From Candidatus Thorarchaeota archaeon (lineage in GTDB: Archaea > Asgardarchaeota > Thorarchaeia > Thorarchaeales > Thorarchaeaceae): DNA of 19,870 bases. Below are positions 16,841 to 18,831 of this stretch, in pieces (position 1 is the stretch's first letter; the number at the start of each line of letters is the position of its first letter). A model generated the notes under the pieces. The model did no database searches. It was not told the DNA's origin and worked only from the letters and a program-made list of their open reading frames with translations. The DNA is taken from assembly GCA_029855935.1 (NCBI GenBank), contig JAGSHN010000021.1, positions 1 to 19,870 on the forward strand, in the 5' to 3' direction. The position numbers and the translations under genes were made by a program.

Positions 16841-17950
16841 ATGCCGGCTGCCGTGTTCATACTACATCTTGATGAGATGCAAGGGTTCGTGGTCGAGAAG
16901 AGGTTCCCCTCGACCTTCAGTCTCAATGAGCGAATCCTGAATCTCGTCTACTACGGGCATCACGAGCAGCCCGGCCAAGAAGTCCAGCTTCACAATATTG
17001 ACGGGAGAAGGATTGTGACCTTCGGGACGCAGGCCCGGCCGGACTGGCTTGCCTGCTTTGTGCTATCCGATGAGACTGACTTCGGGCCAAACAAGGAGGT
17101 CTTCGCTGGCATGGGACGTCTCATGCTGGAGCTTGCCGCGGAGGATCCCAAGCTCGTGGATGTCGGCGAGATTGTCCGAAGAAGGCAGGTCATACCAGCC
17201 CCGAGCCAAGAACAGAGATGCGCAGCCACATTCACTAGCCCATCCTCGACGCTTGTACTAGAGCGACTGGAGGAGCTCGGTCTTGAGAGGTCTGCCCGTC
17301 TTGCGATATGGTTGCGGGACGAGATTCATGCTCAGGATGTCAATCTTGCCGACGCGGTCAGACCTCTGATGGACGCCGAAATCGTCGCTGTCGAGATGTT
17401 CCAGAAGACCACCGAGGTCGTCTATCTTCTGGCGGACGTATTTGCCTATCGCGCGCCTCCTGTTGAAGCACTCAGATACGCCGAGGAGAACATGCCTGAT
17501 GTTGCAGAGCAGTACGCTCAGCTCGTGAAGGAGTTCTTCTCCCCGGACCCACCAGCCAAGGGGTACAACCCGACTATTCCTGTCGACGACCCCAACTCAC
17601 CCATCGTCGAGGACAGAAGAACGATTGCAGGGTTGCTCACGAAGAGCCTGCTCTACACCGTCATCCGATACCTTCGGGAGAGACCACAGACGGCCTCCGA
17701 GATCTCGCAGACCAGCATCCTTCCCGAACGTATCGTGAATCGATCGCTCTGGGAGCTGGAGACCGAGCGGGTTGCTGCTCGATTGGATGACGGGATGTGG
17801 GTACTCGTGACAGACCCGAGGATTGAAGTATTCATGCCGGAATTTGTACTCCCGATTGTTGCGAGACGCGTCTCCGAAAAGGAAATAGGAGCGGAGCTAG
17901 GCAAGAGATACCTTGAGCTCCTCACCGAGAAGTGGAGTGAGAGTCGATGA
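16841..17950 (+). CDS. Hypothetical protein with putative N-terminal uDENN/longin-like domain and two winged-helix-like domains, ~369 aa
   Basis: N-terminus AVFILHLDEMQGFVVEKRFP fits the uDENN-type beta1-DxxxG-beta2-P pattern, followed by a helix, three strands and a helix. wHTH-like segments: TLVLERLEELG...LMDAEIVAVE...VVYL and TVIRYLRERPQTASEIS...IVNRSLWELETERVAARLDDGMWVL. The stop overlaps the next start (ATGA). The CDS is well supported; the domain calls are by eye. Confidence 0.75.
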   Translation: MPAAVFILHLDEMQGFVVEKRFPSTFSLNERILNLVYYGHHEQPGQEVQLHNIDGRRIVTFGTQARPDWLACFVLSDETDFGPNKEVFAGMGRLMLELAAEDPKLVDVGEIVRRRQVIPAPSQEQRCAATFTSPSSTLVLERLEELGLERSARLAIWLRDEIHAQDVNLADAVRPLMDAEIVAVEMFQKTTEVVYLLADVFAYRAPPVEALRYAEENMPDVAEQYAQLVKEFFSPDPPAKGYNPTIPVDDPNSPIVEDRRTIAGLLTKSLLYTVIRYLRERPQTASEISQTSILPERIVNRSLWELETERVAARLDDGMWVLVTDPRIEVFMPEFVLPIVARRVSEKEIGAELGKRYLELLTEKWSESR

Positions 17951-18831
17951 TCAGAGGGATCTACATACTCAATGACACCAGCCTTGTCTACTCAAAGGAC
18001 TACTCGGAGAGTGAGCTCACCGCCGAGCTTGTGCGATTTCTTGTGAGCCTCAGCGAGTTCGTCAAACACGTCGACATAGGCGAGGACATCGAGCATATGG
18101 ACATCGGGCCTTGGCGCCTCTTCTACACCAAGCGGGATCGCTTCACCTTTGTGGCACTTGCAGACAAGGCTGATGACATAGCCCAGATCAATGAAAGACT
18201 CAGTCAGCTCGTGAACGTCTTCATGCGCGAGTTTGCAAACTTGGCGCTGACCAACCAGCCTCTTGTCGGGCTCGACGAGAAGGTCGACGAGATAGCAGTG
18301 ACTATGGTCAAGGTGGCCATCCTCGGCTACGCGGGCGTCGGGAAGACGACCACGCTCCACCTCTTGCGCGGAGAAACCCTGCCTCTGATACACGACCCTA
18401 CAATCGGTGTCAGTATCAAGAAGCTGCCCGAGGAGGTCGAGAATGCAAACATAGTATTGTGGGATCTTGCGGGCCAGTCGCGTTTCAGTATTCTCTGGGC
18501 CAAGATGATAGCCAACGCTCAGGTGGTCATTATAGTCACCGACAGCACCCTTGAGAACGTTCTGCGAAGTAAGAAGCTCGTCAGCCTAGTGAAGGAAGAG
18601 GTCCCAGACGCAAAGATCATTGGGATTGCCAACAAGCAGGACCTGCCCACTGCACTGACCGCCGAGAGGGTCGGGCAGATTCTGGGGATTCCGACCTACG
18701 AACTCGTTGCAATCGACATCTCGTACAGAGACAGGCTGATTCAGATTATTCGCAAGGCCATACTGGAGGGCAAGAGGGAGAGCAAGAGCGCCTCGGGCTC
18801 ATCCTCATCGTCGGCCTCAGCGAGCCAGTGA
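17947..18831 (+). CDS. Longin domain + Arf/Rab-like small GTPase fusion, 294 aa
   Basis: Residues ~1-118 resemble sigma/mu-adaptin-type longin (MIRGIYILND..LVYSKDY; LFYTKRDRFTFVALADKADD..INERLSQLVNVFMREF). G1 GYAGVGKT (127-134), G2 PTIG, G3 WDLAGQ, G4 NKQD, atypical G5 LVAI, and a Ser/Ala-rich tail. Confidence 0.9.
   Translation: MIRGIYILNDTSLVYSKDYSESELTAELVRFLVSLSEFVKHVDIGEDIEHMDIGPWRLFYTKRDRFTFVALADKADDIAQINERLSQLVNVFMREFANLALTNQPLVGLDEKVDEIAVTMVKVAILGYAGVGKTTTLHLLRGETLPLIHDPTIGVSIKKLPEEVENANIVLWDLAGQSRFSILWAKMIANAQVVIIVTDSTLENVLRSKKLVSLVKEEVPDAKIIGIANKQDLPTALTAERVGQILGIPTYELVAIDISYRDRLIQIIRKAILEGKRESKSASGSSSSSASASQ

Follow-up and report, generated by a model that had tools for sequence, protein, structure and literature searches.

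The window, i.e., the whole analyzed DNA of 19,870 nucleotides (nt), covers positions 1 to 19,870 of contig JAGSHN010000021.1 (assembly GCA_029855935.1) from a Candidatus Thorarchaeota archaeon. Two adjoining genes on its + strand, here called A and B, are the subject of this study; all features below are on the + strand unless stated otherwise. Gene A (16841..17950) encodes an acidic protein of 369 amino acids (aa) with a longin domain and two winged helix-turn-helix (wHTH) domains in an NPRL2/3-like layout. Gene B (17947..18831) encodes a 294-aa protein composed of a longin domain and an Arf-like small GTPase domain. The pair is a real, ancient and conserved GTPase module of Asgard archaea with an NPRL2/3-like partner. 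A coiled-coil gene, C, lies downstream, and the contig end at 19870 bounds the downstream context of the locus in its own assembly.

Fifty-two species-level Thorarchaeota loci were sampled, of which 50 were informative, i.e., not cut by a contig end. An initial annotation made from the letters of the window had described an ATGA overlap of two open reading frames (ORFs). The overlap is present at 17947..17950, where, within GAGTCGATGATC (17940-17952), B starts with the ATG at 17947-17949 and A stops with the TGA at 17948-17950, and translational coupling was borne out by the other loci. A Shine-Dalgarno-like GGAGTGAG (17934..17941) is placed within the final codons of A, 6-13 nt ahead of the B start, and GGAGTGA, GGGGTGA or GGTGA was found at the corresponding position in nearly all of the 50 A/B junctions. 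The junctions were of four types, i.e., a 4-nt overlap (27), an 8-nt overlap (5), a 1-nt overlap (3) and a gap of 1-2 nt (15).

The ORF lister offered a longer frame for A, from 16748. Because the Met of 16841 (MPxA...) is where each of the 54 aligned homologues starts, this position was taken as the start of A. A promoter-like box, composed of a purine-rich stretch resembling a B recognition element (BRE) and ATTTAT at 16802-16807, was found at 16795..16807, 39 nt ahead of A. In 40 of 49 Thorarchaeota loci, a box of the GGTCAAACATTTATG type stands 38-41 nt ahead of A, and the rest of the spacer is variable. From its sequence and position, the box may be an archaeal BRE/TATA promoter for a bicistronic A-B transcript. 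An operator-like inverted repeat was looked for upstream of the operon, and none was found.

Domain architecture of the A and B proteins

Sequence searches gave little for A. No family was matched in Pfam or NCBIfam, and PDB searches with the single sequence and two profiles returned winged-helix regulators only, with no longin, NPRL2 or FLCN. A protein-atlas feature search hit only unnamed archaeal clusters. The AlphaFold2 model of A was confident, with a predicted local distance difference test score (pLDDT) of 91.3 and a predicted TM-score of 0.87. In this model, residues 1-114 have the longin topology beta-beta-alpha-beta-beta-beta-alpha-alpha, as the initial annotation had proposed for the N-terminus. 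The longin domain was assigned to residues 1-116 (16841..17188) by structure matches, and its Gly15 and Pro23 are nearly invariant family-wide. It is followed in the model by a first wHTH at residues 123-205 (17207..17455) and a second, ArsR-like wHTH at residues 254-331 (17600..17833), both net acidic, and then by two terminal helices. An invariant loop, GYNPT...DPNSP..EDR at residues 241-259 (17561..17617), is restricted to this Thorarchaeota orthologue group.

In whole-chain Foldseek searching, GATOR1 entries were the best matches of A (E 7e-4 to 8e-3, 336-465 aligned columns). The matched chains are probably NPRL2 and NPRL3, as judged from chain lengths of 362-461. When the longin domain alone was aligned with VIA-align, Z was 10.5 to the Lokiarchaeota longin 8yqg and 9.6-10.4 to NPRL2-length GATOR1 chains, with a root-mean-square deviation (rmsd) of 2.7-3.0 over 118 residues. 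Lst4 (9.2), DENND1A (9.2), Ykt6 (8.9) and sedlin (8.6) came close behind. The fold of A is clearly longin. As longins that do not belong to GTPase-activating proteins (GAPs) score within about 1-2 Z units of NPRL2, GAP longins are not singled out. NPRL2 and NPRL3 consist of a longin domain with two or more wHTH repeats (PMC3747258). On this layout and the modelled one of A, the architectural comparison drawn in the initial annotation holds: the model shows A to carry a longin and then two acidic winged helices, i.e., the layout of NPRL2/NPRL3.

The winged helices were compared with known regulators. The second one had Z of about 9 to the ArsR/SmtB proteins CzrA and SmtB and weak profile matches to PagR (E 0.0018) and PH1932 (E 2.9e-4). 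HTH_20/HTH_5 matches were detected in 6-7 of 60 A-family members, and A itself matched no HTH family above the Pfam cut-off. Residues 117-369 superposed on bacterial tandem-wHTH regulators of the ArsR/SmtB/TrmB kind (TM 0.62-0.70 by the matched model). The net charge of the whole protein is about -19. The mean charge of the winged helices is -3.9 and -2.9 per domain, and that of their recognition helices -2.6 and -0.7. Both winged helices, including the recognition helices and the wing, are net acidic across all orthologues, which argues against DNA binding.

The G domain of B was recognized by sequence. Residues 120-271 matched Pfam Arf with E 3.4e-20 and 72.7 bits, against a curated cut-off of 22.3 bits, above Roc, Ras and Gtr1/RagA (Gtr1_RagA 13.9 bits), and the closest solved structures by sequence were Arf1 and Arl1. 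The domain spans residues 119-275 (18301..18771) and has intact G1-G4 motifs, i.e., the P-loop GYAGVGKTT (18325-18351), DPTIG with the switch-I Thr, WDLAGQ with the catalytic Gln177 (18460-18477) and NKQD (18631-18642). Across 35 Thorarchaeota sequences it is nearly invariant and the first 118 residues are variable; such constancy across genera suggests many constrained surfaces on B. The near-invariant alignment lacks diversity, so the AlphaFold2 model of the G domain was poor (pLDDT 41-76 by 10-residue block) and the domain was judged on its sequence.

The longin domain of B occupies residues 1-118 (17947..18300), and the N-terminal approximately 120 residues model as a longin with pLDDT 80-90. 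In VIA-align, residues 1-121 gave Z 13.9 to the VAMP7 longin (4afi; 114 residues aligned at rmsd 2.2), followed by Sec22 (13.5) and by TRAPP and adaptin sigma/mu (about 12). The SRX longin of SRalpha (6frk_y) was matched as well, and SNARE, adaptin and SRX longins are the most alike. The N-terminus of B is longin strand 1 (MIRGIYIL), with no amphipathic, often myristoylated membrane helix as in Arf, and the C-terminal tail has no Cys. B is an Arf-like GTPase in which a longin domain replaces the usual N-terminal membrane helix, and the description of a longin-like domain fused to an intact G domain with WDLAGQ was confirmed. Longin-fused Arf/Rag-like GTPases of Asgard archaea have already been published (10.1101/2020.10.19.343400; PMC10933270; PMC11914678).

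Linkage of A and B across Asgard archaea

B directly follows A in all 50 informative Thorarchaeota loci. Paralogous pairs are linked too, and linkage extends to other Asgard classes. Neither of two results that would have refuted the initial annotation, i.e., an N-terminus of A that is not a longin and a loss of linkage in related genomes, was therefore obtained, and the A-B pair was inherited as a unit.

The source genome encodes two further A-like genes and two further longin-Arf genes, which are again paired. Their linkage was surveyed in 61 Thorarchaeia genomes, and both pairs were linked in most of the genomes that had the two genes; related genomes are non-independent samples, and the counts are given as such, with no statistical test. 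In pair 2 (contig C21 of the same genome, L069:3314-4471 and L069:6002-7822), A2 and B2 share a strand and are separated by 1.5 kb, in which a GNAT gene runs on the opposite strand. More than 50 of the 61 genomes have A2 upstream of B2 on one strand, at a distance of 0.4-2.9 kb. The B2 GTPase has a strongly acidic tail of about 320 aa ending in DDYYDYFVDDW. A2 is far more conserved across genera (82-90% identity) than A1, the A gene of the window (42-62%).

Module 3 (contig C19, L100:1239-12886) consists of A3, a 2354-aa surface protein, B3 and three coiled-coil proteins. A signal sequence, an acidic inner tail and a C-terminal membrane span characterize the surface protein. In 9 genomes A3 and B3 are direct neighbours, 42-91 nt apart, and in about 19 one giant gene is inserted between them. 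They occur together in about 33 genomes, are both absent from about 23 and are discordant in about 5, which are incomplete assemblies; presence and absence are both found inside single genera. A3 has a true Gly-Pro in the beta1-beta2 loop. One of the coiled-coil proteins of the module has 123 aa and starts with MGLFDSWRRKRRQK, and another, of 476 aa, looks winged-helix-like by eye at its C-terminal end. Some Thorarchaeota (G052:C187, G045:C48, G001:C24 and others) have a fourth longin-Arf gene, a paralogue of about 310 aa with 45-56% identity to B2, which is absent from the source genome.

A profile search with A over 1.8 billion representative proteins recovered 225 relatives at E up to 0.001, many of them full length. 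Of 91 Asgard genomes sampled, 73 encode members of the family, and a single genome can have as many as nine. Outside Thorarchaeota, 16 of 67 sampled A genes have a directly adjoining Arf-like G-domain gene, in the order A then B (10), B then A (3) or on opposite strands (3), and linkage occurs in at least seven other Asgard families. Trees of A and of B contain the same four pair clades, including one of Thorarchaeota pair 2 with one other family and one of Thorarchaeota pair 3 with two others.

No A-GTPase fusion was found among the long A-family members. Some A-like proteins of about 1020-1046 aa (P0312, P0360) have SIR2_2 and TPR domains after the longin-wHTH-wHTH core, and the other long extensions are unannotated or TPR. 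The core is also found at the C-terminus of proteins of 1300-2500 aa that have no Pfam matches. In Odinarchaeia, a 136-aa gene after an A homologue was considered as a longin and rejected, as it contains no recognizable longin.

Proposed function of the A-B pair and rival explanations

In the favoured explanation, A and B are the two subunits of a small-GTPase switch, cotranscribed and translationally coupled, and the module is of old age and wide distribution among Asgard archaea; the chances for and against it are about even. Coupling is indicated by the ATGA overlap with its conserved Shine-Dalgarno-like motif, by a promoter-like box ahead of A but not of B, and by the abutment in all 50 loci. 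The module itself is indicated by the linked paralogous pairs, the adjacency in 16 of 67 genes outside Thorarchaeota and the four pair clades common to both trees. The modelled folds, the overall acidity of A and the near-invariant G domain of B are in line with it.

Longin and roadblock domains dimerise into platforms for GTPases, as in MglB2-MglA, NPRL2-NPRL3, FLCN-FNIP, Mon1-Ccz1 and TRAPP. By analogy with these systems, the single longin of A would pair with the single longin of B, and the G domain of B would dock on this platform. A might then modulate or read B's nucleotide state with no classical arginine finger, in a manner like that of MglB or of guanine nucleotide exchange factors (GEFs) and not by GATOR1-like chemistry. 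The winged-helix arms of A would bind further partners and not DNA. The coiled-coil protein C is one candidate partner, and the inner tail of the giant surface protein is another, in the paralogous module.

The MglA-MglB system offers a comparison in organization only. There, too, one operon encodes a small GTPase and a protein of longin/roadblock fold, action as a GAP or regulator without an arginine finger is plausible, and, if A and B heterodimerise, one G domain would be served by two platform domains. The differences are that MglB is a single-domain homodimer and that the G domain of B is Arf-like, not MglA-like, by Pfam.

Several observations weigh against the switch-module explanation. 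The neighbourhood of about 6 kb, with the gene for glutamyl-tRNA synthetase (GluRS), a small Cys-rich protein, a YdjM-like membrane protein and a B-box-like zinc protein, is also syntenic in Thorarchaeota, so adjacency within the class is weak evidence by itself. The first three distant A homologues inspected had no GTPase neighbour; in the wider sample about a quarter were linked, and 51 of the 67 sampled A-like paralogues outside Thorarchaeota adjoin no GTPase gene, which suggests that the family also works in other contexts. The window gene (ThorA1) has a long branch in the A tree, where its placement disagrees with that of ThorB1 in the B tree. In profile-profile comparison with hhalign, the longins of A and B were co-linear and the match was not significant (E 0.033, probability 1.5%). 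Contact between A and B is predicted from the behaviour of longin and roadblock domains in other systems.

It was also considered that A is chiefly a cargo or receptor adaptor whose winged helices or longin would hold the cytoplasmic tail of a membrane or surface protein. B would be recruited as a switch and would regulate A, and not A regulate B, as in SRX-SRbeta or Arf-adaptor effector relations. This is rather unlikely. The giant gene between A3 and B3 in about 19 genomes would fit an adaptor, as would an Odinarchaeia A-like gene that is followed by a gene for a protein of more than 1552 aa, and the longin of B is most like SNARE, adaptin and SRX longins. However, no giant gene stands beside the A-B module of the window, and A3 and B3 abut without one in 9 genomes. 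In SRalpha/SRbeta, a longin-fold domain is bound to an Arf-family GTPase, and SRalpha joins a longin and a GTPase in one chain; the G domains are different and there is no winged-helix partner.

A distinctly unlikely explanation is that A is a GAP of the GATOR1/FLCN/C9orf72 type, whose longin would supply a catalytic arginine finger to the G domain of B, and that the pair is the direct ancestor of the eukaryotic longin-GAP complexes. Such a role would agree with the full-length Foldseek matches to NPRL2- and NPRL3-length chains, with the longin Z of about 10 against NPRL2-length chains and of 9.2 against Lst4, and with the catalytic Gln of B, which is expected for a GAP-dependent GTPase. The NPRL2-like family reported for most Thorarchaeota metagenome-assembled genomes (10.1101/2020.10.19.343400) would fit it as well. 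Gly15 also occupies the position of the beta1-beta2 GP motif of GAP longins (PMC12290439) and is 95-100% conserved (54/54 orthologues, 57/60 family members). However, Gly15 is followed by Phe in 52 of 54 orthologues, so the orthologue group keeps only the Gly of the motif, and by Pro in only 10 of 60 family members. Ykt6, sedlin and DENND1A score nearly as well as NPRL2. No match of A to NPR2, NPR3 or Folliculin was found at E up to 1, and none was among the 25 most frequent families over 60 members.

R66, in the beta4-beta5 loop, was considered as the putative counterpart of NPRL2 R78. It was rejected as the finger: the position holds Arg in 4 of 54 orthologues and otherwise Tyr, His or Phe, and Arg reaches 5% family-wide. 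No Arg in the longin domain of A is conserved across the family. GAP chemistry was therefore not supported, and among GAP, GEF, effector and adaptor roles for A, the classical arginine-finger GAP is the least supported. A Rag-like client disagrees with the Arf-like score of B (Arf 72.7 against Gtr1_RagA 13.9 bits). The likeness of the pair to GATOR1, FLCN and C9orf72, of which the initial annotation saw it as an ancestral form, is one of architecture and not of demonstrated descent. No profile links A to NPR2, NPR3 or folliculin.

Compared with GATOR1, in which NPRL2-NPRL3 (yeast Npr2-Npr3) acts on RagA/Gtr1, A has the same N-terminal longin with two wHTH repeats and its best full-length fold matches, and in both systems the small GTPase itself carries a longin/roadblock-type domain. 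The two systems differ in several points. A has no sequence-profile match, no conserved arginine finger and only the Gly of the GP motif; each module has one A gene and not a heterodimer of two paralogues; B is Arf-like with an N-terminal longin, whereas Rag has a C-terminal roadblock; and the genes of A and B form one operon. C9orf72-SMCR8, FLCN-FNIP and the Asgard longins of "FLCN/SMCR8-type" (PMC12290439) are similar to A in directing a longin towards Arf/Rag-type GTPases and in the conserved beta1-beta2 Gly. A differs from these in its winged helices in place of DENN, the missing Arg finger and the lack of a Folliculin Pfam match. For the Asgard FLCN/SMCR8-type longins the GTPase partner was left open in PMC12290439, whereas for A it is given by the operon.

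A very unlikely explanation is that A is a DNA-binding transcription factor whose longin senses the GTPase and wires the switch to gene regulation. The second winged helix is nearest to ArsR-type regulators by sequence (PagR, PH1932, HTH_20/HTH_5), and the superposition of residues 117-369 on tandem-wHTH regulators points in the same direction. Against DNA binding stand the net acidic winged helices, recognition helices and wing of all orthologues and the lack of an operator-like site or inverted repeat upstream of the operon. The winged helices of NPRL2/3, moreover, have been described as possible binders of protein, RNA or DNA (PMC3747258).

Inherited synteny with no functional or physical link between A and B would explain the conserved 6-kb neighbourhood and the three distant homologues without a GTPase neighbour, but is extremely improbable given the start/stop overlap type junctions with a Shine-Dalgarno-like site kept in nearly all 50 loci, the three independent linked paralogous pairs, the joint loss of A3 and B3, the linked pair in at least seven other Asgard families and the congruence of the two trees for four pair clades.

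The switch-module explanation can be extended to a larger one, which is unlikely as a whole. In this, the A-B(-C) operon would represent, in prokaryotes, the longin-GAP/GEF systems of eukaryotes. A, as a true relative of NPRL2/NPRL3, would control an Arf-family switch through a longin heterodimer with B, C would supply a membrane-binding helix in trans, and the winged helices would couple the paralogous modules to giant surface proteins. Eukaryotic Arfs carry the membrane-binding helix in cis. If the extended explanation is true, a matched set of regulator, GTPase and membrane anchor is older than eukaryotes.

The existence of a switch module of A and B has a meaning for the assignment of regulators. 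Asgard genomes encode dozens of small GTPases and more than 100 longin/roadblock proteins, and few of these regulators have been matched to a GTPase. Operons rarely help in the matching, and in MK-D1 the GTPase genes are generally outside operons with roadblock or longin genes (PMC10933270). Which GTPases are the partners of GAP-like Asgard longins was asked in PMC12290439, and the A-B module answers this for one family by gene order alone. Translational coupling, the presence of three paralogous pairs in one genome, joint loss and the congruence of the trees across Asgard classes all connect a protein of NPRL2/3 architecture with a longin-Arf GTPase. The two or three soluble proteins make a small, expressible system for studying how longin platforms regulated Arf-type switches before eukaryotes, and it could show whether the arginine-finger GAP mechanism arose later.

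A longin protein with an NPRL2-type C-terminus was reported in most Thorarchaeota metagenome-assembled genomes (10.1101/2020.10.19.343400), and A may belong to that group. Asgard longin-GTPase fusions and NPRL2-like proteins are therefore already known, and in the papers on them (10.1101/2020.10.19.343400; PMC10933270; PMC11914678) a conserved translationally coupled pairing is not described. A literature search of limited coverage found no paper describing the conserved A-B pair.

Gene C and other neighbours

The 213-aa product of gene C (19004..19645) is a coiled-coil protein that contains a Pro/Ala-rich linker and, C-terminally, an L-x-(F/Y)-x2-G-x-I motif. The gene is preceded by a conserved promoter-like CAAAGGTTAAGAAC box (18942..18955) and by GGTGA 7-12 nt ahead of its ATG. 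In Thorarchaeota, 47 of 50 loci have a coiled-coil gene C after B. In other Asgard classes, a small coiled-coil gene, which has the C-terminal motif in common with C, lies about 12-14 nt after B or overlaps it. C probably belongs to the A-B module too. The initial annotation had called the module a two-gene one, and this is not strictly so, as most lineages have a coiled-coil gene after B.

The C-terminal coiled coil of C matched Pfam CdvA (E 3e-5; 24.5 bits, where the cut-off is 30) and GvpG (E 0.0013) below threshold, and both matches could be compositional. In operons outside Thorarchaeota, the small protein after B starts with MG and an amphipathic helix, e.g., MGLVEKVKVLFKRLIG and MGIMDRVVAFFRNLFGG (L111:5718-6050, L112:9013-9333, L113:9022-9342). 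This start resembles the N-terminal membrane helix of eukaryotic Arf, which is missing from B, and is a candidate membrane anchor in trans.

Upstream of A, a 134-aa Cys/His-rich, B-box-like protein is encoded at 16337..16741, and it is placed 70-120 nt ahead of A in 37 of 50 loci. It had sub-threshold matches to B-box (E 8e-4) and C5HCH, and a promoter-like box separates it from A. The gene is a conserved neighbour in Thorarchaeota, and its membership in the module is uncertain. A 97-aa Cys-rich protein (15111-15404) without a Pfam match, whose acidic tail ends in Trp, is encoded beside GluRS in 39 of the 50 Thorarchaeota loci.

A giant open frame (2-6142, - strand) of more than 2047 aa runs off the window edge and contains Laminin_G_3 and DUF2341 domains; it probably encodes a surface protein. 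It is located 10 kb from the A-B pair on the opposite strand, with no demonstrated link to the module. As listed, a ThiI-like frame (7530-9320, - strand) shares about 500 nt with a hydantoinase A frame (8811-10841, + strand), and the ThiI-like gene therefore probably starts further in.

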